Source: a virus (taxonomy: Duplodnaviria > Caudoviricetes). From it: 64,000 nucleotides of DNA. The notes under the pieces are model-generated. The model was given only the letters and a program-made list of their open reading frames with translations. It was not told where the DNA came from and ran no database searches. Location: the IMG/VR virus record IMGVR_UViG_3300013383_000024, positions 1 to 64,000 of that record; one strand, given 5' to 3'. The first letter of the stretch is position 1. Every line of letters begins with the position of its first letter. Both the position numbers and the translations under genes were made by a program. Shown piece by piece: positions 30 through 41,599 of this stretch.

Positions 30-351
30 GGCCTGATTACAATATTTTTTGAATTTGTTTTAAAGCATTCAATCTGCATATGCCATGCAACAAAATAACA
101 GAACGTCGCATAGTGGGCATAGGTTTTGATATTTTGGACAGCTTGCAGACCGTGAAGCAGATGTAGTCGCTCACTCTCTCCGCTCAACTTTTCCCCTCAA
201 AACACCCCTCATTTCCACATTTTATCGCATTATTTCAAACTTTTTATATCATTTTTATAATAACTTTTTAAACTTTTTAATAGTTTCTCACTCATCATTT
301 CAGCTCGTCGGATACTCTAAAAAATAATTTTGAAAAATGTAAAATTATCTC

Positions 352-380
352 TTGACATGAAGACCTATTTTTGATATACT
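352..380 (+). promoter_or_regulatory. sigma-A promoter of the recombinase gene
   Basis: TTGACA(352-357)-N17-TATACT(375-380) with TGn extension, upstream of RBS AGGAAGGA. Confidence 0.75.
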
Positions 381-416
381 ATACTCGTAAATCATGATAG
401 GAAGGAGCATCTCTAT

Positions 417-1253
417 TTGATAATAGATATCAACTCTAAACGATCACCCAGTGATACAACAATAGATATTGGTAAGCTCAAGCAGAGTTCTCGACAGCTC
501 AAAGCCGGTCTTATCGCTCCTGCAGCAGAAGACACGAGCTATGAGATTGCTGCTGAGCATACCAGCGAACCAATAAAGAGCATAGAGGATATCAATCGCA
601 TTACCCAGTACCTTATCGATCAAAAGCGCTGGAGAGACAATATGCTCTTTATTGTAGGTATCAACTTCGGGCTACGAGTTAGTGATCTGGTAAGCTTAAG
701 ATTCTCTCACATAATAAATCCGAACTTCACCTTTAAAGATAAGTTCCCTATCTTAGAGAAGAAAACTAAGAATACCAGAAAGGTAAAAAAGAATAGATAC
801 CTTACCATCAATACCGCAGTCATTGAAGCTGTTACCCTCTACCTTGAGAACACCCCGGGAGTTAAGCTTAGTGACTACATGTTCCGATCAGAGAGCACTG
901 GTGGTAACTACAGCGAAGATAACCAGGACAATAAAGAGAATAGACCTCTAAGCAGAAGTTCTGTGGATAGAATACTTAAAGGTATAGCTAATGATCTTAA
1001 CCTCAACTGCAAGGTATCTACTCACACCTTGAGAAAGACCTTTGCTTATCATCAGATGGTTATGAGCGGCAACTCCTCAAGGAAGCTGCTTGTCCTGCAG
1101 AAGATGTTTAATCACTCCTCAGCTGCTCAGACTCTTGAGTACATAGGTATAACCAGCGAGGAAATTGATGAAGCTTACAAAGCTCTTAACCTTGGTAGTC
1201 TCAACTATAACTACTTGGCAGACAGTACGATAATTGAGATCGATGCCTGTTAA
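417..1253 (+). CDS. Tyrosine recombinase (integrase/resolvase family, catalytic domain)
   Basis: GLRVSD, K, HTLRKTF, NHSS and LEYIG catalytic motifs. Confidence 0.9.
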   Translation: MIIDINSKRSPSDTTIDIGKLKQSSRQLKAGLIAPAAEDTSYEIAAEHTSEPIKSIEDINRITQYLIDQKRWRDNMLFIVGINFGLRVSDLVSLRFSHIINPNFTFKDKFPILEKKTKNTRKVKKNRYLTINTAVIEAVTLYLENTPGVKLSDYMFRSESTGGNYSEDNQDNKENRPLSRSSVDRILKGIANDLNLNCKVSTHTLRKTFAYHQMVMSGNSSRKLLVLQKMFNHSSAAQTLEYIGITSEEIDEAYKALNLGSLNYNYLADSTIIEIDAC

Positions 1254-1416
1254 GTGATTATATAAATAAAAAAATTGTACCTTGATAAATAGGTCGTGAT
1301 GACCTCATATAGATAATTACCTACTGGCCAAAAATAGCTAAGCATTAAATAACCACTATGTAACGAGAACGCTGCGGACGGTTTATGCCGTTGTTGGATA
1401 AAGAGGGAATGTAAGA

Positions 1417-1523
1417 TATTATCCAGTGTTGAATAAAGGGAGAGAGCAGCATCTTTATTAGCGTTCGAGTGGATGGAGAGAGATAGAGCAGAATAATTAC
1501 CAGTGTTATAAAGAGAGATAGAT
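1417..1523. repeat. Imperfect direct repeats (CCAGTGTT..ATAAAG.GAGA; GAGAGATAGA)
   Basis: Copies at ~1423-1446 and ~1500-1521; further ATAAAG-purine motifs nearby. Confidence 0.45.
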
Positions 1524-1720
1524 AATGCTTAGCAAAAAAAATATATTATATAAAATTTATTTCTTTAACGATAAAGGAAAAGATTATATAAAAATAATTT
1601 CTTTATCAATAGAAGAAAAGACTTTCTTTTATTATTTTTTTAGGACTTACTTCGTCGCAATTCCTACTGTAGCTCTCTGCGAACACCAGTTAACGGAATT
1701 GCTCCTCAGATCATGAAGAA

Positions 1721-1858
1721 TTTATAATGTATCTTAACGTTCATGTCCCATTTACTCCGCTGGGTAAATTACACTATTTAAACGAGTCTCTGACTCGGCT
1801 TAAATAGATACGAGATTCCCCGTAGAGGTCAATGTGCCATGAACTAATACATTATAAA
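1721..1858. other. ~140-nt imperfect hairpin (candidate origin, cruciform or ncRNA)
   Basis: Nested pairings TTTATAATGTAT/ATACATTATAAA, GTTCATG/CATGAAC, CTATTTAA/TTAAATAG, CGAGTC/GACTCG. Confidence 0.6.
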
Positions 1859-2022
1859 AGGATTAGAGTCTATTTCTAAGAGAAGTGAGCCCGCAAACCC
1901 TTGCGCCCCAATGGGTTCAGAAAAGCTTAGCAGGGCACCCTGTGCTAAAATGATATTTTCCCTCACCCCCTACCCCCTCTCCCAACGTATAAAATATATC
2001 AAAACACGAAAGAAGGAATTGA

Positions 2023-2130
2023 ATGATTAAAAGGAAAAGAATCTTTAACACAGACACGATCAGCCGCGTCGCTGCGGACTACGAAGAAACTGCCTATGCT
2101 TATTTAGACGAAGAGGTGTGCCGTTGGTAA
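2023..2130 (+). CDS. 35-aa small ORF overlapping the helicase start
   Basis: RBS AGAAGGA, ATG 2023, TAA 2128-2130; MIKRKRIFNTDTISRVAADYEETAYAYLDEEVCRW. Confidence 0.4.
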   Translation: MIKRKRIFNTDTISRVAADYEETAYAYLDEEVCRW

Positions 2131-3389
2131 GAGTTTGCGACGCAATTATGGGCAGCGGTAAGACCGAGTCTGCCATCACATATATGAACGAACACCCCGA
2201 AAAGAAGTACCTCTATGTCACACCGTACCTCAGTGAGACTGAGCGCATTTGTGCTGGGTGTCCTGATTTGAATTTTCAGCTGCCATCCAACAAGTCCGCA
2301 AAGCACAAACACAGAAAAACACTTCACGCTGCCGAGCTTATCGCACAAGGGCATAATGTCGCCACGACCCATCAGGCTATAAACCAGTATCCGCCGGAGA
2401 TGATAGAGCTTATCAAGCAGCAGGACTATACACTGTTCATTGATGAAGAACTGCAAGTGCTTGAAGAGACCAGCAAGCAGAAAATGATATTCTCGCAGGG
2501 GGATCTCGATGCGCTCGTTGATGGCGGGTATGTATGGTTTGACGGAGAATCTTATCGTCTGACAGATAAAGAGTATAACGGAGAGACCGCGAAGCGGCTT
2601 ATTCACCTTATCAGAACGCGCAGCATGCTGAGGATAGACGGCGGCGGAGCTGCCTTTAAGTATTACTGGGTGTTCCCTGCGGAATTCATAAAGGCATTTG
2701 AGGATGTGTTCCTCTTAACCTATATGTTTGATGGGCAGGATATGAAGATATTTCTGGATATGAACGACATCCCCTACAAGAAGATCAGTACCATACGTAC
2801 CCCGGATGGAGAATATAGGTTTGATATGGAGATGGCTTATGGATGGGTCCCTGAGTACACTAAGCATCTTTCAGAGAAAATCCACATTGAGGATGACCGC
2901 AAACTAAACCTTGTTGGCAAGAACTATTACGATATTTCGAAGAATTGGTATGCTAAGAAAGAGAATGCAGCCGCAGTTAAGCAACTTAAGGACAATACCT
3001 ACAACTTCTTTAGAAATCGTCACGGGAATATCCCCGCCGAGTATAGGATGTTTTCTACTTATAAGGATGCGAAAGCAAAAATCAGAGGAGCCGGTTACTC
3101 CAGTGGGTTCGTAGTAGTAAACGCTAAAGCTACGAACGATTATTGCAACAAAACCGTCTTAGCTTACTGTGCAAATCTGTTCTTGGATCGATGTAAGAAA
3201 AACTACCTTGTTAGTATGGGTTATGAGCCCAACGATGATTTGTATGCTCTTTCAAATATGGTTCAATGGATTTGGCGCTCGGCCATCCGTAGAGGTAAAG
3301 ACATATACATATATATTCCCAGTAGACGCATGAGGACTCTCCTTATTGACTGGATCAACTCTTTCAATAAAGGAGGTGAGTGCGAATGA
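2118..3389 (+). CDS. SF2-helicase-like P-loop protein, SPbeta YonV-like
   Basis: N-terminal Walker A DAIMGSGKT, Walker B LFIDEE, QWIWRSAIR motif; lies upstream of the RNAP gene; true start may be TTG 2124. Confidence 0.75.
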   Translation: MPLVRVCDAIMGSGKTESAITYMNEHPEKKYLYVTPYLSETERICAGCPDLNFQLPSNKSAKHKHRKTLHAAELIAQGHNVATTHQAINQYPPEMIELIKQQDYTLFIDEELQVLEETSKQKMIFSQGDLDALVDGGYVWFDGESYRLTDKEYNGETAKRLIHLIRTRSMLRIDGGGAAFKYYWVFPAEFIKAFEDVFLLTYMFDGQDMKIFLDMNDIPYKKISTIRTPDGEYRFDMEMAYGWVPEYTKHLSEKIHIEDDRKLNLVGKNYYDISKNWYAKKENAAAVKQLKDNTYNFFRNRHGNIPAEYRMFSTYKDAKAKIRGAGYSSGFVVVNAKATNDYCNKTVLAYCANLFLDRCKKNYLVSMGYEPNDDLYALSNMVQWIWRSAIRRGKDIYIYIPSRRMRTLLIDWINSFNKGGECE

Positions 3390-3553
3390 ATAGAAGCTTT
3401 TACTATGGAACTACTAAGCGTAAGCCTGCCGAACCTGATTACTATTTAGACATATACAGCTGCTCGGATGCAGCTATTGATCGCGTTATAGAAGCAAGAC
3501 GTGCTGAGTTTATTGAGGAGTGGCTTCAGTACGAGAACCAGTTTTACAACTGA
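3386..3553 (+). CDS. 55-aa hypothetical protein
   Basis: Strong RBS AAGGAGGTGA; ATGA overlap with the upstream stop; not in the ORF track. Confidence 0.7.
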   Translation: MNRSFYYGTTKRKPAEPDYYLDIYSCSDAAIDRVIEARRAEFIEEWLQYENQFYN

Positions 3554-3609
3554 GTTTTATTTTTTGATTATATCAATACTGTTTTTCGTTAAAAACGGAG
3601 GGATTTATA

Positions 3610-5514
3610 CTGTCAAAACAACAAGCGTGTCAAAAATTCATATTCAAAATACATAGCAGCAGGCTGCGCAAAGCTAAATGGAAGCTAAACTTATCGCTGC
3701 CTGATGCACGGAGAAACAACGAACTAATCTCCCTGGCTGATAGTCAGGTACTGAGATGGATAGATGAAATAAATGGAGTATACGACGCTGAACGTCGTGC
3801 GAGAGAAATAAAGAGACGAATACGAGATATACATAAGGCAGATAATTGTGCCGAACACAAACGGCTGCTGCGCACCTTGTACACAGAACTGGATAAGGTG
3901 CAGTTCAAGCCGGATTATATGTGCTTAATAATTGATAAAGATAAGGACTACTATAGAGCCAATCGTGGCTTTTCGATCAACGGAGTAGTGTATGAGAGGC
4001 TGCTGGGCACTGCCGGTGGCATTAAGAACAGGACGATAGTATATGTTAGTAAAGCTGTTGCTCCTGAAATCAAGAGACGAATTAATAACGGGCGTGACTT
4101 GACCAAAGAATTAGTTCCCGCCAAACTTGAAGCATATAAAGCGTTAGCCTGCAGCGCTACGATACCCGTAACTATGCCGTCCGGAGTTTTAGTCGTTCCT
4201 GACTGCGAGACAAAGTTTTATTCAGATATTATATATTTGAGCAATGAGAATTCCGATGAACCGGTTATGGAAGAACGCAGTAACGAGCTTGTAGAGTTGA
4301 CCGAGTCTGATGGTTACGGTCTTATGCTGCCCTCACTGGCTCAGCGGTGGAGCGCTGAGCTAAAGCTGGACTATACCATGAGTGGCTGCACGACAAGGTG
4401 CGCCTATGAAAAGGGCATGGTATTTACATTTGATTTTGTAGACTTCGCTGAAAAGATCGCCGGTACTTTTATAACTAAAGACGCATGGGGTAATGAGGTC
4501 GACATCCGTACAGTCGAGCTTATACTTACAACCTCTATGTTGAAGCTGTGGGATTCCTACGATAGCTGTGACGATTACCTGAAAAATTGCATTGCCAACG
4601 GATATACGTTTGGGATCACCAAGACTTGTCCCGCTCGTCTTGAAAAGGAACGCGGAACCAACTATCAGTTTATCCAGCCTTACGACTTGAGTGACGAAGA
4701 CATAGATGAGTTGATCGCTCCGACAATGTCTGAGATAAGAGATGTGCTTGGCGGAGACTATGTAAAGACCGTGCTATTTCTTAAAGGCTGTGGCTTAAAG
4801 GATGACGATGTTTCGTCGCTGGCAAATAACTATGCCAAGGCTATTATGATCGAGCCTCGCATCCTTAACGATCCCTATATTCAGGGCAACATATATCAGC
4901 TTATAAAGAACCGGGTTAACGAAGCCAAGGTTGGTGTGCTTAATGTCCACGGGAATTACTCAATAATTTGCGGAGACCCATTTTCGCTGTGTCAAAGCAT
5001 TTTCGGACTTCCCGTCACTGGATTACTTAAGGCCGGGGAGATTTATAATAAGTTTTGGCTCGACGCGGGGGCTGACAAGCTTGCCTGTTTCCGAGCGCCT
5101 ATGTCAGTTGCCAACAATATCAGACTGGTAAATGTGCATCGCAGCTATGCAGCTTCGTACTGGTACAGATACCTGACCACCTGTACTCTGATGAATAGCT
5201 TTGATACTGCAGCCCAAGCTCTCAACGGCGCTGATAAAGATGGAGACCTTGTAATGTTAACTGACAACAACACATTGGTTAACTGCCTAACTCCCCTGCC
5301 AGCTATTGTGTGTGCTCAGCGGAGAGCTGCTAAAAAGGTTGTCACAGAGGACGACATTATCATGTCTAACGTAAATAGCTTCGGCGACGAGATCGGCAAG
5401 ATAACAAACCGCGTAACATCCATGTATGAGGTGCAGGCAAGATACGAAAAAGATTCGCCAGAGTATAGAGAGCTGGATTATAGAATCAAGTGCGGCCAGC
5501 TCCTCCAGCAGGAT
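3610..5514 (+). CDS. yonO: Single-subunit RNA polymerase, YonO-like (cRdRP-fold two-barrel), exon 1
   Basis: Open frame from CTG 3610 behind RBS GGAGGGA; SDGYG motif, FRAP motif, catalytic NGADKDGD (5233-5247); spliced product 914 aa. Confidence 0.85.
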
Positions 5515-6579
5515 TTTAGTTTTACTATAAGTCCGCTTACACGGTAACGTGTTTGAAAACGACCCATTGAATTGCTGGAAACCCCTAAAGCTCACAACAC
5601 CACAACGCAGTCCTGAAACAGGCAAACGTGACGGTGACGAAAGTAGAAAAAAGTTGTGAGATGGCATAAGGTTAAATCCTAAGTGCTGTAACAATGGGCA
5701 ATCAGCAGCCAAGCCTCGAACAGAGGAAGGTTCAACGACTAAGCGCCCCGCAAGCGATTGGCGGGGACTGTGGTGGGCACCCCATTGGGGTGAAGATATA
5801 GTCTGGGCTCGCGGGAAATCTGCGAGGGTTTATCCAACGGGGAGTAGCGTCCTGTTCACATCTTAATTAACCTTATAAAATAAATAAGCATGAGTGGAGA
5901 TTTCGTTGAAAGAAAATTTACTGGAAAGGACTTTTGGAAGATTGACGGTTATTGCCTCTGCAGAAGATAGGAGAGGTAAGACTATGTGGAAATGTAGGTG
6001 CGAGTGCGGTAACGTTGTCGTTGTTAGAGCAACGTGTTTAAAATCGGGTGAGACTAAATCGTGCGGTTGTTACCAAAAGGAATGTGCGTCTGACAGAGCC
6101 GCGAAGCACAAAGGTTTTGGCACGAGGTTGTACACTGTTTGGAACAGTATGCGGCAACGTTGTAATAACCCCAACAATCACGCATTTCATAACTACGGGG
6201 GACGTGGGATCAAGATATGCGAGGAGTGGGACGACTTTGGTAAATTCCGCGACTGGGCTATAAAGACTGGTTATGACGATAGCGCATTGCAGGGAGAGTG
6301 TACACTGGATCGTATAGACAACGACGGCCCGTACAGCCCGTCGAATTGCAGATGGGTCAGCATGAGAGAGCAGTCCAGTAACAAAAGAGGCACCCCGCAT
6401 CTATGTTATAACGGGGAGGTTCATACCTTAATGGAGTGGGCTGATATAACCGGCATTAAATACCAAACAATACATAAACGCTATTCTAAGGGTTGGCCTG
6501 CTGAAGCCGTTTTAAAGCCTGTAGGCTGACACGTTGATACAATATATAAATTAAGATGTGATTTACGTTAAACAAAACG
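5515..6579 (+). ncRNA. Group I intron 1 (IA-like), in the RNAP gene
   Basis: P AATTGCTGGAAA, Q AATCAGCAGCC, R GTTCAACGACTA, S AAGATATAGTCT; P1 GGAU/GUCC with U.G; terminal G6579; splicing gives CGQLLQQD-SIDKAKG in frame. Confidence 0.93.
5894..6529 (+). CDS. Intron-encoded HNH-type homing endonuclease
   Basis: FGRLTV..WKCRCECG, YGGRGI, TLDRIDNDGPYSPSNCRW; sits in a loop closed by CACATCTTAATT/AATTAAGATGTG; start possibly TTG 5906. Confidence 0.85.
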   Translation: MEISLKENLLERTFGRLTVIASAEDRRGKTMWKCRCECGNVVVVRATCLKSGETKSCGCYQKECASDRAAKHKGFGTRLYTVWNSMRQRCNNPNNHAFHNYGGRGIKICEEWDDFGKFRDWAIKTGYDDSALQGECTLDRIDNDGPYSPSNCRWVSMREQSSNKRGTPHLCYNGEVHTLMEWADITGIKYQTIHKRYSKGWPAEAVLKPVG

Positions 6580-12078: not shown

Positions 12079-13124
12079 AAGTTAAATTGTCTAGCCATGC
12101 AGAAATGTATGGTTGTAATCGGGCAAAATCGGTGAAGGCTAAGTAATTAGCAAAACAGTCTAATCAATTAAGGAGAACAATGGCTAAAAAATCATCAACG
12201 GAAGAGTTTAGAAAGAGATTGGAAGATATACATGGCAACCAATTCGAGCTACTGTCAGAGTATGTAAATAACGAAACCAAGGTGCAGCTTCGTTGTCAAA
12301 AATGCGGTAATATTATTTTTAAGCGCCCATCCAAAATCGTTTGCCGCCCATACGAGGGGTGCTATGTCTGTTCGGGCAAAAATCGCTATAAGACAAAAGA
12401 GTCCCTCCAACGAGAAGTAGATGTATTATATCCTGATGAATTTTTAATATTAGGAGATTACCTTGGTGCGCGGAAAAAGACACTCGTAAAAAGAATCCCG
12501 TGCGGTCATACATACGAAGTATCTCCAGATAATTTGTTGCGCGGTAAAGGCTGCCCTAAATGTAATCAGTCGCATTATGCGGACATTGTTGAAGACTACC
12601 TTATTAATAAAGGTATTACCTTCGAGCGAGAAAAGCGGTTTACCGGTTGCCGAAACATTAGAGAGCTTCCTTTTGATTACTATATCCCCGACAGGAATAC
12701 TTGCATAGAGGTCGATGGGCAGTTTCATTATAAATCGTATTATGAGGCTATTAATAATTATGCTGCATTTGAAGCTGTGACCGTGAGAGACAAAATAAAA
12801 ACAGACTACTGTAAGGATAACGGGATTAAACTAATAAGACTTCCGTATTATATGTCGGATCGTTTTCCTGATATTTTAGATTATGAATTATATGCCAACA
12901 CCGAGATAACTCAGTCAACAAATCGGGTGACTGAGTATTGTAACGCATAGAGGGTGACGAAAGAATAATCCCTCCACGAGTGTCCGACACGACCAGCTAT
13001 AGGCTGGCCTGAGCAGGGTTAGCATCTTGCGAACCTAACGTCCATACGAGGGTGAAAATATATGCTGAACTTATAGGAAACTATAAGATCTGTAGGATAA
13101 AAAGCCTACAGGGTAACATATTTG
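12079..13124 (+). ncRNA. Group I intron 3, in terL Walker B
   Basis: Core similar to intron 2 (GGGCAAAATCGGT, GTAACGCATAG, CCACGAGTGTCC, GGTGAAAATATATGCTGAACTT); P1 GCUGAU/GUCUAGC; terminal G13124; splicing yields LLI-VDE. Confidence 0.9.
12180..12950 (+). CDS. Intron-encoded endonuclease, zinc-finger repeats plus Vsr/DUF559-like PD-(D/E)xK domain
   Basis: CQKC, CYVC, CPKC; FEREKRF..PFDYY..IEVDGQFHY..RD..K..YC..NGIKLIRLPY; RBS AAGGAG. Confidence 0.8.
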   Translation: MAKKSSTEEFRKRLEDIHGNQFELLSEYVNNETKVQLRCQKCGNIIFKRPSKIVCRPYEGCYVCSGKNRYKTKESLQREVDVLYPDEFLILGDYLGARKKTLVKRIPCGHTYEVSPDNLLRGKGCPKCNQSHYADIVEDYLINKGITFEREKRFTGCRNIRELPFDYYIPDRNTCIEVDGQFHYKSYYEAINNYAAFEAVTVRDKIKTDYCKDNGIKLIRLPYYMSDRFPDILDYELYANTEITQSTNRVTEYCNA

Positions 13125-14403: not shown

Positions 14404-15513
14404 TTGGAAGATAGCCATAGGACAAATATAAAATTAGGTGAACCCGCACTTGACAGCTCAGATGGTGCGGCTCACGCAAAGAGAGCACCGCTGGATATGG
14501 CATCTACGAAAACCTTCCGTCTGTCGAAGAACTTTGCCGCTCTGAATCATCTAATACTCAGAGACTTAAACAACAATCCGACCGCACCTACATTTTATAA
14601 GTATTCTAAAGACGACATCGCGACATATCTGCAGAATCCGTATACATACGAGAAGCAGCTACGAGATGCCGTTGTTTATATTTATGGGGCAAGTTCACAT
14701 TTCAGACGGTTAATACAGTACTTTGTCAGTCTGTCTGATCTTGCGTATGTTGTATCCCCTTATAAGGTTGATCCTTCAAAGGCTAATGTGAAGACTATAA
14801 ACAATAACTATCGAAAAGTCCTAAACACATTATCGTCGATGTCTGTAAAGACGCAGTTCCCTAAAATACTTTCCGTATGTTTAAGAGAAGATTGTTTTTA
14901 TGGAACGCTTTGGGTCACAGCCGACAGCATAACCGTTCAACAGCTCCCCTCTGACTATTGTAGTATCTCGACGATTGAGGGCAATGTTCCTAACGTGTCT
15001 TTTGATTTTTCGTACTTCAGTTCAAGAGAGAGTGATTTACCTTTTTATCCTTCTGAGTTTACCACTAAATACAATCAATATAAGAGCAACAGAAATATGA
15101 GATACCAGGAGCTCGACTCTCCTACCTCGTTTGCTGTTAAGTGTAATAACGACATACTTAGTTACTCAATTCCCCCGTTTGCCGGTATCCTTAGAGAAAT
15201 TTATGATATTGAAGATTATAAATCCTTAAAGCAAACAAAGACGGCGCTTGAGAATTATGCTATGTTGGTTATGAAGCTGGGTCTGAGTGACGATGGAGAC
15301 TGGCAAATAGATTACAACAAAGCGGTAGACTTTTGGCAAAATCTCGACGCAGTGTTGCCGGAAGAAATCGGTTCTGTTTTATCTCCGATGGATATTGACA
15401 AAATCAGTTTTGAGCGTAGCAATACTGCCGACACCGATACTGTTGCTGAAGCGGAGCAAAATCTGTTTACCGCAGCAGGTGTATCATCATTACTATTTAA
15501 TAATGCGAAGGCT
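14404..15513 (+). CDS. Portal protein (YonE-like), exon 1
   Basis: Position between terL and protease; TTG behind AAGAGGTGA; ends AGVSSLLFNNAKA; spliced product 511 aa. Confidence 0.8.
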
Positions 15514-16491
15514 TAACAAGATAGGTCTCTTATGCAGCAATGCATATTAACAACCCATTGAATTGCTGGAAACCCCTTAGAGCAGCGCCGACCACAACAT
15601 AGGCATGAAAACAGCCAAGTGTGACGGTTTGAAAACGGCGTTGATTGGGCAATCAGCAGCCAAGCTCCGAACAGGAGAAGGTTCAACGACTATCCCGTAA
15701 GGGAGTAGGGTCGCAAGCGATTGGCGACCCGAAGTGGTGGGCACCCCATTGGGGTGAAGATATAGTCTGTGCTTAATAGAAATATTAAGAGAAAGGAGTA
15801 GCGTCCTTTAAAATATATTAAGATTTGAGGTTCCAATTGAAAAAAGAAGATTTAACTGGGCACAATTTTGGAAGACTGACTGCAATTGCATCCTACGAAG
15901 ATCATATTCAGCGGAGCGGGAGGCATAAAACCCAATGGCTATGTCGTTGTTCTTGCGGCAACGAAGTCGTCGTTCAAACATTTAATTTGAAAAGCGGAAA
16001 TACAAAGAGCTGCGGATGTCTTAATGCCGAAAATATAAAAACACAAAGCGTAACGCATGGGGATAGGCATACTAGGCTGTACCGAATTTGGTGCGGCATG
16101 AAATCTCGCTGTTACGATACGGCATGCCCCAGTTACGAGCGATATGGTCGCAGAGGAATTATGATGTGTGACGAATGGAAGGAGTCCTATCAAACCTTCA
16201 AAGACTGGGCAGTACAGCGCGGATATAACGACGAACTGTCTATCGACAGGGTCAACAATGACGAGGGGTACTCTCCGGAGAATTGCAGATGGGCCACGCA
16301 GAAAGAGCAAGCCAACAATCGTTCATCCTCTAAGCACTTCCTGTATGAAGGACGAGATGTCACGATTTCCGAACTATCTGAGATAACAGGCATCAAGTAC
16401 CATACACTTTTTGCAAGGTTAAATACTTTACATTGGACAGTAGATGATGCTGTAAAGACCCCAGTTAGAACCACAACTTAATAACACACAG
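15514..16491 (+). ncRNA. Group I intron 4 (IA-like), in the portal gene
   Basis: Same P/Q/R/S elements as intron 1; P1 AGGCU/GGUCU with U.G; P9.0 UGUG/CACA then G16491; splicing yields NNAKA-SANALSLSIKAD. Confidence 0.93.
15825..16481 (+). CDS. Intron-encoded HNH-type homing endonuclease (paralog of 5894-6529)
   Basis: FGRLT..WLCRCSCG, YGRRGI, SIDRVNNDEGYSPENCRWAT..QANN. Confidence 0.85.
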   Translation: MRFQLKKEDLTGHNFGRLTAIASYEDHIQRSGRHKTQWLCRCSCGNEVVVQTFNLKSGNTKSCGCLNAENIKTQSVTHGDRHTRLYRIWCGMKSRCYDTACPSYERYGRRGIMMCDEWKESYQTFKDWAVQRGYNDELSIDRVNNDEGYSPENCRWATQKEQANNRSSSKHFLYEGRDVTISELSEITGIKYHTLFARLNTLHWTVDDAVKTPVRTTT

Positions 16492-26548: not shown

Positions 26549-27778
26549 GTGGTGAGGATTTTGGCTACAGGATCTAATTCCGATATTGAACTATTAGCCG
26601 GACTACAAGGTGGAGGTTCGATAGCCGGAGCGTCCGGCAGAAGAATTCAGCACGAACTTGAAAATATAATTAATCGCATAAACAAAAATCCTGCCGGGGT
26701 CAAGATCACACTCAGCAAAAACGGTGAGACGCTACTCAAACAGGATATTGCCAAGGCTGTAGAGTCTGTTAAGATTAAAAGCTTTAATACTACTGCTGCT
26801 GTAGCTAAACTGAAAACAGATATTCAGGCAGCACTTGCTGGAGTTGCAATACCTGTTGGGGCTGTGGCTGCCGGTGCTGCTACCGGAGCAACAGCTACCG
26901 CTCAAGCACAAACCACAACAGGAACTGTAAATGCCGCAGAGATTGACGGAATCACTAAAGCCGTCAAATCGTTTAACGCTCAATTATTGATATCAAATCG
27001 GCGCATAAAAACTGTTAAGGCGACTGCGTCTGGTCTCAAAGAGGCGTTAGACGGTGCGTCGAGTTTAGCTGGAGGCAGCACATCTTCAGGAAGTCCTGCT
27101 AAGAATCCCAGCAGCACTATGGCTAGCCTCCAGCAGATTATCTCGTTGAGCAAGAAGGCAGAATCGCTGCTGAGGAATAATCCGCGCATTGTTAGCACGG
27201 GGTACGGAGATACTCTTAATTCTGTAATTGAGCAACTTAAAACGGGTTCAGTAGGCAAAGACGTTTTTAAGCAACTAAAGAACGACGTACTCCAAGTGGA
27301 AGTCGGGCTTAGAAATGCAGGATTACAGGGTAAGACATTATGGTCTGTCTTAAAGTCCGGTTATGAAAAGTTCGGTGGTTGGGCGCTCATAACGAAGTCT
27401 ATGATGGCAGCGGCAAATTCCGTGCGTCAAATGATAGATAACGTTACGCAGCTGGATGCAGCAATGACCGAATTGCGCAAGGTTACCGACGAAACAAATG
27501 CGACTTATGAGCAGTTCTTCTCGGATGCTACGGTGCGTGCGAGGAGTTTGGGCGCGACCGTTACCGATACGATCAACGCCACGGCGGATTTTGCACGTCT
27601 TGGATATAACATTGACGATGCTGCTACTCTCGCCGATACGGCAATTATATATAAGAATGTCGGCGACGGTATAACCGACATTGGTGTCGCCTCGCAAAGT
27701 ATTATATCTACATTAAAGGGTTTCAGCCTTGAAGCGGAAGATGCAACGCATGTTGTCGATGCATTTAACGAAGTGGGT
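26549..27778 (+). CDS. Tail tape measure protein, exon 1
   Basis: TP901-type core LDAAMTELRKVTD..FARLGY..DAFNEVG; start possibly TTG 26561; spliced product about 2430 aa. Confidence 0.88.
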
Positions 27779-27914
27779 AAATGTTTATGCCCAGCGGCGT
27801 AGTAATACGTCGTAAGCACATAGCTATAACGGTTAAAGGCCGGAGACGGTTCAGACCGTGGAAAGACTTAGTGTTTGTATATATAATGAATATGAATGAA
27901 AGGGTACAATATAA

Positions 27915-28109
27915 ATGAATAACAAAGATCTTTGGAATAATACAATTACCGTTCTTTTTAGAGAACCGAACGGAGAACTCATAAAAAACAAGTGTTATAC
28001 TAAAACTTTTCGGCGCTTCGCATTTGATAACTTACTCGGTGCCGCTGTCGGAGTATTAATTGGAGAACTAGCTTATGATCTCATACAATATATCGAGAAT
28101 CTGCTTTAA
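27915..28109 (+). CDS. Intron-borne 64-aa protein with hydrophobic C-terminal helix
   Basis: RBS GAAAGGG; LLGAAVGVLIGELAY segment; 42-nt 3' overlap with the antisense gene. Confidence 0.5.
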   Translation: MNNKDLWNNTITVLFREPNGELIKNKCYTKTFRRFAFDNLLGAAVGVLIGELAYDLIQYIENLL

Positions 28110-28430
28110 CAGTTCTGTGTCGCCAGGGTACGCTTGTGCTACTTTGTTTATTTCTATATCCAGCAGTCTGTAGATGATATTAATTATGCCGTTTGCAGTT
28201 AGGTTTTCTACGGTTAGATGTTCGGATAATTTACTTGTGATTTTGCAGATTATATCAGCGCTTTTCTTTGAAAGTGTTACTTTCCTGTCGGGATTCTTCT
28301 CCAGCTCCGATAATCTTTGCCGACATATACATACAAGTTCGTCAAAGGTTAGCGTATCTAGTTCTCCCAAAGTAACATGGTCGAGCTCACCCAAAGTTAG
28401 GCTATCTAAATCTCCTATCGTTAACGTCAT
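28068..28430 (-). CDS. Intron-borne antisense 120-aa protein with N-terminal TLGELD repeats
   Basis: RBS GAGGTG 6 nt before ATG 28430; MTLTIGDLDSLTLGELDHVTLGELDTLTFDEL...; own promoter. Confidence 0.8.
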   Translation of the reverse strand: MTLTIGDLDSLTLGELDHVTLGELDTLTFDELVCICRQRLSELEKNPDRKVTLSKKSADIICKITSKLSEHLTVENLTANGIINIIYRLLDIEINKVAQAYPGDTELLKQILDILYEIIS

Positions 28431-28460
28431 ATCGAGCACCTCAAGAAATAATATACACAA

Positions 28461-28489
28461 ATTGTAACACAAAATCATTATATATACAA
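28461..28489 (-). promoter_or_regulatory. sigma-A promoter of the antisense intron cargo gene
   Basis: Minus strand TTGTAT-N17-TACAAT with TGn extended -10. Confidence 0.7.
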
Positions 28490-28684
28490 ACATTATTTAT
28501 CCCGAGAGACTGTAATGCCCACCATGGTAACATGGTGGGCTTCGCTATGCCCCCATATAAATATGGGGTGAAGATCCAGTCCGAACTGCGGCTATAATCT
28601 TAAAATGAAACCGCAGAACGAGGTAGAAATGCCTCGTCGCCGCGCAAGCGGTCAGTACCGTGGCAACGGGAAAGTAACAGATTG

Positions 28685-31600
28685 AATAATTTTGCCATCT
28701 CCTCGGCGGGCATTGGCGATGCGTTAACCCGTTCAGCAGCTTCTTTGTCTGCTGCGAATAATACCATGGAAGAGTCCATTGCGCTTATTACCGCAATGAA
28801 CACCACTCTCCAAGACCCCGAAAAAGTGGGTACAACATTAAAAACAATCACTATGTATCTTCGCGCTTCCAAAGTTGAGCTTGAAGAAGCCGGTGAAAGC
28901 ACAGAAGGTATGGCAGAGTCGACCTCAAAACTGAGAGATTCGGTACTTGCTCTTACAGGGCAAAAGGTTGACATAATGCTTGGTGATGGAAAGACATATA
29001 AATCTACATATCAAATCCTCAAAGAGATATCTCAGGTCTGGTCGTCTATGGCCGATATTGACCAGGCAGCATTGCTGGAACTTCTTGGCGGCAAGAGGAA
29101 TGCAAACGCTACTGCAGCATTAATTCAAAACTTTGGAATTGCTGAACAGGCACTTGAGTCTGCAACCAACTCCGCCGGTTCTGCCGCTGCCGAAAATGAG
29201 AAATATCTCGATTCTATTCTTGGTAAGGTAGCTCAGTTTAACGCCGCATTCGAGACATTATCTGCAACTGTTATTGATGCAGATTTCTCAAAGGGCGTAG
29301 TTGATGCGGGTACTACCATACTCGACATTATAACTAAACTTATTGATGGTCTCGGCACGCTTAATACGCTGGCTATGGGCGTAGGCGCTGCACTTAGTCT
29401 TGGAAAGGTTAATTCAATATTCTCGCCTTTCCAAGTTGGGGTTAAAGCAAATTCAAATGGCGGCGATTTCACCAGCAGCTTCAGCGTCGGCTTTACGTCC
29501 CAGTTGTCCCGGGACAAGGCCGGTATTGATGCGTACAATGCTGCACTTCAAACATATAATAGCGAACGCAAGAAAGCTGAAAAGGATAAGGACGCACTTA
29601 TCAAGGCGCAGAACGATTTCAAAGACGCTACCGAAGCTGCGAAAGCGAGCGTTTCCGGCAGCACTAAAGAACTAATCAATCTCCATGCCGCGCAGGAGAA
29701 GGGCGTCTCTGCTACTAACAGCAGCTCTAAAGCACTCATTACGCTCCGAGCCAAGACGATTGCCGCAACAGTTGCCACTACAGCTTTAAACATGGCAATT
29801 TCCCTTGGTTTATCTTTAGCTATTCAAGGGATCGTAACCGGAATTGACTATTTGATACATAGAGAAGAGCGCATGGCTGAGGCGGCTGAAGAAGCAAGTG
29901 ATTCCGTCTCGAAAATTAGTGCGGAGGCTAAGGAACTTAAATCCTCTACTCAGAGCGCAGCAACCACAATACAGGCGTTTGGAAACCAAATCAAATACGT
30001 TAATGGCAAATTAACTTCTGACACGTTATCTACAGAGCAAATAACCCAGTATTCTGAGGCGGTCAAAAGTTTGACCGAAATGTATCCGTCGCTCATATCC
30101 GGGTACGATGCCGAGGGTAATGCCATTATTAGCCTTAGCGGCGGATACTCAAGCCTAACTAAGAATATTGATGCCGCATATAAAGCCAAGCTTCTTTTGA
30201 TGAATGCTGAGCTCGACGAAAACATGCCCGACATTGTTAAAGATGCATCTTACAAAACGTCATCCCTTACCACACAACTTAAAAACAGTCGGGCTTTAGT
30301 TGAGATGGCGAAACGCTTGGCTAAAGACCCGCATAACAAGACAGATAACATCTCGGTTTCCGAGAGAGATCTCGTTGATTGGCTTTACGGCGAAGACAGT
30401 GCCGAGTTAGCAGTTAATCTAGAGAAGCTCGACCCGTCACGTGCTTTGAATCAGCTTATCGCAAAAGAGGGCGGTAAATGGTTTGAGGACAATAAGTATT
30501 TAGGTGTTACAATTGCCACCGATTCCATGAAAGGATGGGCAACTGGTATTAAGCAAGTGTTTTCCAGTGAGGATGGTGGTAAGAAATTAGATAGTTCCGC
30601 CATCGCGAAATACTTAAGTTATGTAATCAGTCCAGAAAAATTGGAATCTGAAGTTTCTCAGCTTGAAGAACAGATCAAAGCCAAGTGGGCAGCAACAAAT
30701 CAAAACTTACTAAGCTATTTTTCGACAGATGAAAATTTTGTCCAAGTCAACGACGCTTTTAGCGGGCTATTAAGCAACATAATAAATGGAGCTGACTGGA
30801 ATGCGCTTATCGATGGAGATGTTAGCTGGGACAGCATTAAGGATTATGTTCAGACTAACCTTGTTAATGTTTTTAACAAGATCGACCTTGCTAGTGTCCA
30901 GGCGGATATGAAAAGCTTGTTATCCGGCGGTGCTGATTTAACGGCAGATCAGTTTACTGCGGTTTTTGACAACGTAAAGAACGCTTTACTTGAAGCGACT
31001 GGCGGTGATCAAAACCAGGTAAAAGTAATTTTGTCTAGCATTGAAAATGCTATGTCAGTCACTGCTGATGATATTATAAAAATAAACAAGCAGGTCTATG
31101 AGGGGGTCGACGGGGGCGTGAGTGCCCTTAAGATTCTTACTGAAGCGACCAATAACTGGACTACGACTGAGAAAGAAGCAATTGCTACCGGTATTGAGGG
31201 CATTACAGATGAAACCGACGCGGTAAATACGTTTATCGAAGAGATCAAAAATGGCAACCCCACGATTGCCGAACTGCAGGCTTTAATCATAAAGACGTCG
31301 GACGGCAGCCTTGAAGCTGCCGGATCATTCAGTGAGTGGAAAGATCAGTATAAAGAACTTGTCAACGATATCAGCGGGACAAGGTCTTTTAATGATATTG
31401 TTGAAAGTTTCGGCACTATAAAAGAAGCAACCGATTCGGCCTATGAATCATTCCTGAAATTAAACGGCGGTGTGACTCAAGAGGAGTACGAGTCCTGGGA
31501 GCCCGATGAATATTACAACAAGAGTGTTGAGGCATTTAATAAATTCAAAGCGCTTTATAATGAGGGGCTTATTGGTAGACGAGAGTTTGCTCAGTATCAG

Positions 31601-33346: not shown

Positions 33347-33833
33347 AAACAACCACACCACCTGTATTCCTAAAGAGTACAGAAAACCCATTGAACTGCT
33401 GGAAACCCCTAAAGCTATCCGTACCACAGCATAAGGATGAAATGCCTAAGTGCGACGGTTACGAAAGTAGAAAGAAACGGATAGATGGCGCAAGGTTAAA
33501 TCCTAAACGCTGCAAAATGGGCAATCAGCAGCCAAGCCTCGAACAGAGGAAGGTTCAACGACTATCCCTTAAGGGAGTAGGGTCGCAAGCGATTGGCGAC
33601 CCGAAGTGGTGGGCACCCCGTCAGGGTGATGATATAGTCTCCTCTGCATAGAAATATGCAGATGTTCGTTAATCGGGCTGATATATTGTAGCGAAATATA
33701 TTGAAGATAATAATTATAGTGCTATAAACAAACATTTATTGATTAGTTAATAAATCAATAAATGAAAAAGGTATATACATATTTAATCACAATAATACCC
33801 ATTTAAAGTTTATAGCTGCGTAATTATTGAAGG
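33347..33833 (+). ncRNA. Group I intron 6 (IA-like, ORF-less), in the tape measure gene; splice sites non-canonical or uncertain
   Basis: AACTGCTGGAAA, AATCAGCAGCC, GTTCAACGACTA, GATATAGTCT, close to introns 1 and 4; removal joins LQKQW to (W)QYRDEI in frame. Confidence 0.85.
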
Positions 33834-40755: not shown

Positions 40756-41169
40756 ATGAACAGCTTATATTGGCGCAATAAAATCATGCGCACTATGTAC
40801 ACCAATAACACAGACCCCTTCTATATCGGACTTTCTTCTCTGAAGCCCGATACGGATGCTAACAAAGCGTATGAGCCTACGGGCGGCGGTTATAAAAGGG
40901 TCAAGGTCGGTCCGTTCACCGAGCCGGAGAACGGGCGCGTTTCTCTGAGTGACGCTGTCGAGTTTGGGCGCAGCACAGCTCCATGGTATGAGCACCCTGT
41001 CAGAGCTTGTTATTGGGTGCTGTTTGACGGAGACGGTGCAGACGCCCACATCTTATCTTATGGCGAACTGGATGAACCCAAATGTATCGAAACTAACACT
41101 ATAATCCTGATTGGCGCTCAATCAATCGTCGTCACGCTCAGCGACTATCAGGAAGCAGTAGGTGGGTAA
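40756..41169 (+). CDS. Minor tail protein
   Basis: YIGLS..P..EP.GGGYKR..F..ST..W motif common in siphophage minor tail proteins. Confidence 0.6.
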   Translation: MNSLYWRNKIMRTMYTNNTDPFYIGLSSLKPDTDANKAYEPTGGGYKRVKVGPFTEPENGRVSLSDAVEFGRSTAPWYEHPVRACYWVLFDGDGADAHILSYGELDEPKCIETNTIILIGAQSIVVTLSDYQEAVGG

Positions 41170-41170
41170 T

Positions 41171-41599
41171 ATGCCGGGCTTTAAATTGCCGATAGGAGTT
41201 CAGCCAAGGCGCTTATTTTGTCGTACCGCTGAAGACCTTTCGTTTTTGTGCGAAATCCCTAAGTGCATAAGCTTCCCTTGTTATGTTGAAGATTACGGTA
41301 CATATTTGCTCGTATCTTCGCAGGGACTAAAAATGGTTATTGCCACGTCCGACAGTGTTCTTACCAGCAAAGAAACCATCGCATCAACGAAGCGGCTGGG
41401 CAAAGGGCTTACTACGCTCGGGGATGTCGACAGTCTTACATTGAATGAACTTGATGGTTGTAGCTTTGACGAAATTACATTTGACACAGCAGAGTGGTTA
41501 GTTCTCACTGGCTCTGCGGCAAAGTTCGGGCGACTTCAAACGCTCGGAGATTTTGACAGATTCACCCTGGGAGAGCTTGACCGCCTCCCATTACTATAA
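41171..41599 (+). CDS. Tail-module protein with TLG(D/E)LD repeats
   Basis: TLGDVDSLTLNELDGCSFDEI and TLGDFDRFTLGELD. Confidence 0.6.
   Translation: MPGFKLPIGVQPRRLFCRTAEDLSFLCEIPKCISFPCYVEDYGTYLLVSSQGLKMVIATSDSVLTSKETIASTKRLGKGLTTLGDVDSLTLNELDGCSFDEITFDTAEWLVLTGSAAKFGRLQTLGDFDRFTLGELDRLPLL

Follow-up and report, generated by a model that had tools for sequence, protein, structure and literature searches.

What are two genes, neither of them resembling a nuclease, doing inside a group I intron that interrupts the tape measure gene of a phage? The stretch of DNA analysed here, which we refer to as the window, comprises the first 64 kb (64,000 nucleotides) of a 99-kb virus record and belongs to an SPbeta-like phage. 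YomU/V/W and YonG/J families are present in close relatives of this phage, and Clostridia and Eubacteriales assemblies contain relatives of its tape measure gene. Because it encodes a large serine recombinase the phage is probably temperate, which suits the lysogenic setting assumed in an initial annotation of this DNA. That annotation had described the intron as a safe harbour for a defence gene and its counterpart; the features involved are collected in Table 1, and loci from other phages are designated by L numbers.

Table 1. Positions in the window of the intron, its host gene, its cargo and related features.
Feature	Position	Strand	Basis
Tape measure gene, exon 1	26549-27778	+	Profile and family matches
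Group I intron, IA-like subgroup (P7.1 present), at site A in the tape measure gene	27779-28684	+	
P1, formed by exon end and internal guide, with U27778.G27789 at the 5' splice site	27773-27793	+	Sequence
5' core: P3 5' strand, P4, P5, P6 5' strand	27819-27862	+	Covariation among sister introns
P6a extension, 5' arm (the 21-bp stem)	27866-27889	+	
64-aa sense ORF with purine-rich RBS and C-terminal hydrophobic/amphipathic helix	27915-28109	+	dN/dS; partner kept in 9/9 distinct loci
ORF for 120-aa acidic, all-helical protein with N-terminal triple 8-residue repeat	28068-28430	-	dN/dS; homologues; motif match
RBS of the antisense gene (28442-28437) and sigma-A-type promoter	28437-28489	-	Kept in L001 and L083
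P6a extension, 3' arm, and P6 3' strand	28475-28502	+	
3' core: P7 with G-binding pair, P7.1, P3 3' strand, P8, P9 hairpins, terminal G	28506-28684	+	
Site B, between 28831 and 28832, empty in the window; last 8 exon bases same as at site A	28824-28841	+	
Tail-module ORF with two motif copies, flanked by genes for a Gp80-fibre-like protein and a fibre-like protein of 2287 aa	41162-41599	+	

The element at 27779-28684 can be confirmed by sequence comparison as a genuine group I intron. All of its core helices can be drawn (P1, P2, P3-P6, P7, P7.1, P8 and the P9 hairpins), with P3 pairing 27819-27824 to 28544-28549, a G28508-C28581 pair and a bulged A28507 in P7, and G28684 as the terminal G, and the complete core that had been reported for it, including the U.G pair of P1, is intact. 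Pairing across six sister introns is seen in 34 of 36 cells for P3, which has four compensatory positions, in 30 of 30 for P4 and in 18 of 18 for P6. The three helices together thus pair in 82 of 84 cells and show several compensatory changes. An Rfam search gives no match for the site-A copy with its insert, as would be expected when some 600 nt of inserted DNA sit within the core; a cargo-free sister intron (L116) scores 35.5 bits against RF00028 (E = 7e-6), below the gathering score of 50. When 27779-28684 is excised, the tape measure frame reads through the joint without meeting a stop, positions 563-720 and 722 onward of PHROG 4211 abut across 27778/28685, and the codon at site A is unbroken in 79 of the 80 related IMG/VR tape-measure loci compared there (L003-L082) and also in L001, all of which upholds the earlier claim that excision restores the host frame. 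The sole exception, L077, has a different intron at this codon. From the intact core we infer that the intron splices out of the tape measure mRNA.

RF00028 also recognises three group I introns of a different lineage in the window, at 5512-5826, 15503-15789 and 33358-33661, the last of these being a second intron of the tape measure gene. HNH genes lie downstream of the first two (5894-6529 and 15825-16481 respectively). An endonuclease-like ORF (PHROG 559) at 12180-12950 splits the terminase region and probably marks another intron, one that is missed by Rfam.

The cargo is held in the P6a loop. Earlier attention had been drawn to the 21-bp stem that closes this loop (27869-27889/28475-28495); the stem exists, but it is nothing special and amounts to an ordinary P6a extension, because a similar long stem closes the ORF of a nuclease-bearing sister intron (L069). 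The possibility that its arms are transposon ends was rejected, as the stem is P6a and its sequence differs between loci. In three sister introns (L068, L077 and L098) the P6a loop is empty, with a length of 18-51 nt only, and in three others (L069, L127 and L138) it extends to 1.0-1.6 kb and contains a zinc-finger endonuclease-like ORF. By this comparison, the two-gene cargo is shown to occupy the slot that is used for a homing nuclease in sister introns. Neither ORF contains an HNH, GIY-YIG, LAGLIDADG or PD-(D/E)xK nuclease, and no nuclease family or fold was matched; the intron is therefore nuclease-free, as had been stated, and a search by profile and structure for a decayed nuclease, which the initial annotation had proposed, likewise shows that neither ORF resembles any nuclease. 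That annotation had also proposed that the introns of relatives be searched for different cargo, and here the outcome is mixed, since the same loop is either empty or filled with a nuclease, apart from one possible case. This is the sister intron L121, with a P6a loop of 757 nt and a 142-aa sense ORF without identification, which is possibly another cargo. Scans with DNA patterns taken from the intron gave no match.

Both cargo ORFs are confirmed as real genes under purifying selection. The dN/dS estimates come from one pair only, the window and L001, between which the cargo DNA is 69% identical and the core 93-95%: for the part of the 64-aa ORF beyond the overlap the ratio is 0.21 (p = 5e-5 by Fisher's test), and for the 120-aa ORF it is about 0.06, with dS near saturation. 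The two ORFs share 42 nt. A convergent 64-aa sense ORF is thus present as first described, being selected and placed on the late strand. A longer antisense frame of 141 aa was rejected because the homologues start at 28430, as was a 97-aa sense shadow ORF whose frame is not kept in L001. In L001, the closest diverged relative, the region that separates the tape measure gene from the following tail gene contains a gene pair, RelE/Gp49-like and HTH, at positions 2649-3299.

The antisense gene had been credited with its own sigma-A promoter, and a promoter of sigma-A type is supported. An extended -10 is found at 28469-28461 and a weak -35 at 28489-28484, within the 3' arm of the stem, but the promoter fails a scan with the plain sigma-A consensus, its -35 matching at only 3 of 6 positions. 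Seven of nine distinct loci have an extended -10 box 39-64 nt before the larger gene starts, where about 0.1 would be expected, although the pattern was picked after inspection; a stricter form is found in 6/9. The 120-aa protein belongs to a family of about 23 members with roughly 25-63% identity. Neither cargo product has a match in PADLOC, Pfam, PHROGs, PDB or BFVD, the family has none in GenBank phages, in family scans of IMG/VR and GTDB or among atlas features, and a predicted model of the 120-aa protein, which is poor (pLDDT 54), matches nothing in PDB, BFVD or the atlas. Among 38 related phage records there is no member of the family, only one weak partial match with a stop.

The pair is not confined to this intron. 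Its tail-to-tail layout is kept in all nine of the distinct loci with enough flanking sequence, five of which are outside any intron, and in each of the nine the small gene encodes 35-64 aa, is hydrophobic, has an RBS and lies on the opposite strand to the larger gene, overlapping its 3' end by 18-42 nt. These small partners are mostly basic with one hydrophobic helix, their 19-residue hydropathy ranging from 1.4 to 2.3 (1.54 for the window peptide). The small gene shares the strand of the structural/lysis genes in every locus, and the larger gene runs against it. The pair follows amidase or CHAP endolysin genes in L088, L089/L091, L093/L148/L159/L160 and L147, with the small gene starting 10 nt or less from the endolysin stop in L088, L089/L091 and L147, and in L084 it is situated between HU and an integrase-like gene. 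In L092 (reverse strand, approximately 330-4050) it lies inside a different, 3.7-kb interruption of the tape measure gene, which has group-I-like core motifs without an Rfam call and also contains an AAA ATPase gene and a zinc-ribbon gene; here the pair would have entered a tape measure insert a second time, independently. The pair is an independent mobile moron, with the intron as one landing site and not part of the system. The idea that the intron is a dedicated harbour is not supported, as in other phages the same pair occurs without an intron, behind endolysin or HU genes.

A new clue to the role of the pair, absent from the initial annotation, comes from the tail module. When a profile of the family N-terminus (34 columns, covering the three acidic 8-residue repeats) was compared with the 623 ORFs of the genome, it found besides itself only 41162-41599, which it matches in two stretches with E = 1.3e-10 (E = 1.4e-6 with a single sequence); the Gp80-fibre-like neighbour of this ORF is recognised by PF23140. 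The motif match reaches 39.6 bits, against 12.3 bits for the best of 10,000 shuffles, but a control with the reversed ORF still gives 17.9 bits, the motif being short, acidic and half-palindromic. At the DNA level, a 44-nt stretch of the repeat shares 75% identity with the tail gene. The equivalent tail slot of nine related phages is occupied by a gene whose product has a conserved related motif at its C-terminus, and a profile of eight such C-termini aligns with the N-terminus of the cargo family (hhalign; P = 79%, E = 1.5e-5 pairwise). Most family members beat 200 of 200 local shuffles against the tail motif of other phages; the window's 120-aa protein scores a weak 2.7 bits against it, and is closer to the version of the motif in its own phage. 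These comparisons show that the N-terminal repeats of the 120-aa protein resemble the tail-module motif, which suggests a tail-directed role. The product of 41162-41599 is putatively assigned as a virion part by gene position alone, because the tail-slot protein has no family match and its predicted model is unusable (pLDDT 32).

The best reading of these observations, which we hold tentatively and with confidence a little short of even, is that the pair encodes a tail decoy made in the lysogen together with a late antidote. The P6a loop has captured a mobile two-gene moron, and the group I intron would splice out of the late tape measure mRNA. In the prophage the 120-aa gene would be read from its sigma-A-type promoter against the late operon and, as this promoter is its own and is opposed to the operon, the 120-aa protein could be made by the prophage. 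Its repeats may then act as a decoy for the partner of the tail motif during tail or fibre assembly, such that the particles of superinfecting relatives would be spoiled. During the lytic cycle the late transcript would cross the 120-aa gene as antisense RNA and would also yield the 64-aa partner, a candidate late-expressed antidote that switches the decoy off, by analogy with Tab/anti-Tab, Tai/Ati and Tha/Ith. A tail-to-tail layout is nevertheless common also to morons of other functions, and layout should not be equated with function.

Several other explanations bear on the same observations. The insert might be a decayed homing endonuclease or non-coding filler, given that the loop is where sister introns hold their nuclease, but the lack of any nuclease similarity, the intact ORFs under purifying selection and the full-length homologues outside introns leave this very nearly out of the question. 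The pair could instead be an accessory unrelated to defence, such as a chaperone-like modulator of tail fibres or lysis timing or a moron that alters the host, with the motif as a captured relic of a tail gene. The DNA identity between repeat and tail gene and the endolysin that is often directly upstream of the pair would both suit such a role, which we nonetheless consider unlikely: the promoter opposes the late operon, so that the 120-aa gene would not be co-expressed with the tail genes, the motif is kept across the family at about 30% identity, and the family is absent, save for the one weak match, from the 38 related phage records.

Convergent toxin-antitoxin pairs with overlapping 3' ends are found in Bacillus prophages (txpA/RatA, bsrG/SR4 and yonT/SR6), and by this model the 64-aa hydrophobic peptide would be a membrane toxin countered, in type I-like fashion, by the overlapping antisense mRNA, which also encodes the 120-aa protein. 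The size of the partners, their mostly basic character, the single hydrophobic helix and the extent of the overlap are all in keeping with it. We think it somewhat less likely still, notwithstanding these resemblances, as the small gene has no evident promoter or structured leader of its own and often directly follows the endolysin stop, the hydropathy of the window peptide is moderate, and the antitoxin would not be non-coding, the antisense RNA encoding a conserved 120-aa protein whose tail motif is left unexplained. Tail-sensing abortive infection, in which the repeats sense an incoming tail protein, the C-terminal helices, which are hydrophobic in many members, stop or kill the cell and the partner inhibits them, receives a slightly lower probability again. 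It shares the layout and the motif evidence with the decoy, has a precedent in Tha (PMC11087260) and gains from the hydropathy of the C-terminal half, where values up to 2.1 are found in several family members, but no HEPN or other effector domain was found, and only about 85 residues follow the repeats.

The intron itself has a history at two positions, as read from assemblies. Among phages that are 98.6-100% identical in their site-A exons, a near-identical intron is found at site A only (the window and L149), at site B only, 147 nt downstream (L150-L153, L155 and L157; also L001), or apparently at both, as in L154, whose second copy is cut off by the contig end after 47 nt, and in L083, with a diverged cassette. 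In L156 the start at A is joined to the end at B; L002 and L158 also belong to the set of loci with the intron at A, B or both (L149-L158, L001, L002 and L083). The copies at A and B differ at about 8 of 906 nt (99% identical). The codon at site A is GTG, which matches the guide, in all A-occupied phages and GTA in near-identical A-empty phages. At site B, P10 forms six pairs (-3.7 kcal/mol) and L001 shows a compensatory change; at site A it forms four (-0.1 kcal/mol). Because P10 fits B better than A, site B is probably the older home of the intron. Since the intron is without a nuclease, the pattern of occupancy fits movement by reverse splicing, and we regard it as a candidate natural case of this route, for which a 2014 review found direct evidence to be lacking (PMC3984707). 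Alternatively, an old intron at site A may have been homogenised by recombination with the B copy, in line with the mosaic appearance of the copies, or a nuclease acting in trans may have moved the intron, there being several HNH genes in the window; the matching codon could also have been selected after insertion.

That site A is an assembly artefact was rejected as unlikely. A genome with the intron at site B only cannot yield the intron-to-exon joint observed, the stretch shared by the two sites is only 8 nt, the same joint is seen in L149, L154 and L083, and the site-A copies have intron and exon variants of their own. Exon 2 of the window looks like a recombination tract just past site B (28864-29011), where about 14 substitutions and a 3-nt insertion, all within 180 nt, set it apart from every near-identical phage. 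In L077 this tape measure segment is an insertion hotspot, with three introns (2851-3217, 3365-3650 and 3673-4000) within approximately 170 nt of exon, at site A, site B and one more position.

Tape measure introns and antisense defence/antidote pairs are each already known. A search of the literature, mostly of open papers, found no description of phage group I introns that carry accessory genes other than nucleases. To our knowledge, few defences are known in gut Clostridia phages. The full combination would be a mimicry-based prophage defence family, in which copies of a tail-docking motif made by the lysogen poison related tails, a late overlapping peptide silences them, the pair enters nuclease slots repeatedly and the intron has moved 147 nt by reverse splicing; that all of this holds is rather doubtful. 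As a candidate for anti-phage defence in such gut phages by structural mimicry of a virion motif, the pair nonetheless has the merits of being small and cloneable and of coming with an antidote control, and the nuclease slot of a ribozyme is here seen to serve as a store for ordinary accessory genes within an essential gene. The nuclease-free intron, 99% identical at its two sites, would make ectopic reverse splicing testable with one natural RNA that holds both targets.

Among known systems, the closest in arrangement is Tab/anti-Tab of Pseudomonas phage JBD26, which has an antisense gene with its own promoter and a small plus-strand partner (PMC10884400). In both that system and the present pair the late operon contains a minus-strand gene that has a promoter of its own, a small plus-strand partner overlaps or is coupled to the upstream late gene, and the tail is the likely target. 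The likeness in layout that had been noticed at the outset, with the defence-side gene antisense and its partner on the lytic strand, is borne out. Homology to Tab, Tai or Tha was not found in PADLOC, Pfam, PHROG or PDB searches; Tab and Tai, which may be absent from those libraries, were compared by layout. Tai/Ati (PMC11364771) and Tha/Ith (PMC11087260) share the noncontiguous-operon layout, with a defence gene antisense to the lytic transcript that encodes a small inhibitor; in the accessible parts of the two reports, neither is described with a copied tail motif or a ribozyme location, unlike the present pair, and Tha carries a HEPN domain whereas the 120-aa protein has neither HEPN nor a sequence match. 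The introns TMP-IVS1/2/3 of Bacillus cereus-group prophages (PMC2504315) resemble the intron described here in being of IA class, in lying in tape measure genes and in the presence of related introns at two nearby sites, but there the copies share about 80% identity from site to site and P1 is altered, whereas here the copies are 99% identical with the same P1 and contain non-nuclease genes. IStrons such as CdISt1 (PMC3984707) are likewise group I introns that make inserted coding DNA harmless to a host gene. In an IStron the cargo lies at the 3' end and is a transposase, by which the element is moved, whereas the cargo described here, in which no match to an IS605-family tnpA/tnpB transposase was found, lies in P6a, has no evident mobility function and exists also without the intron.
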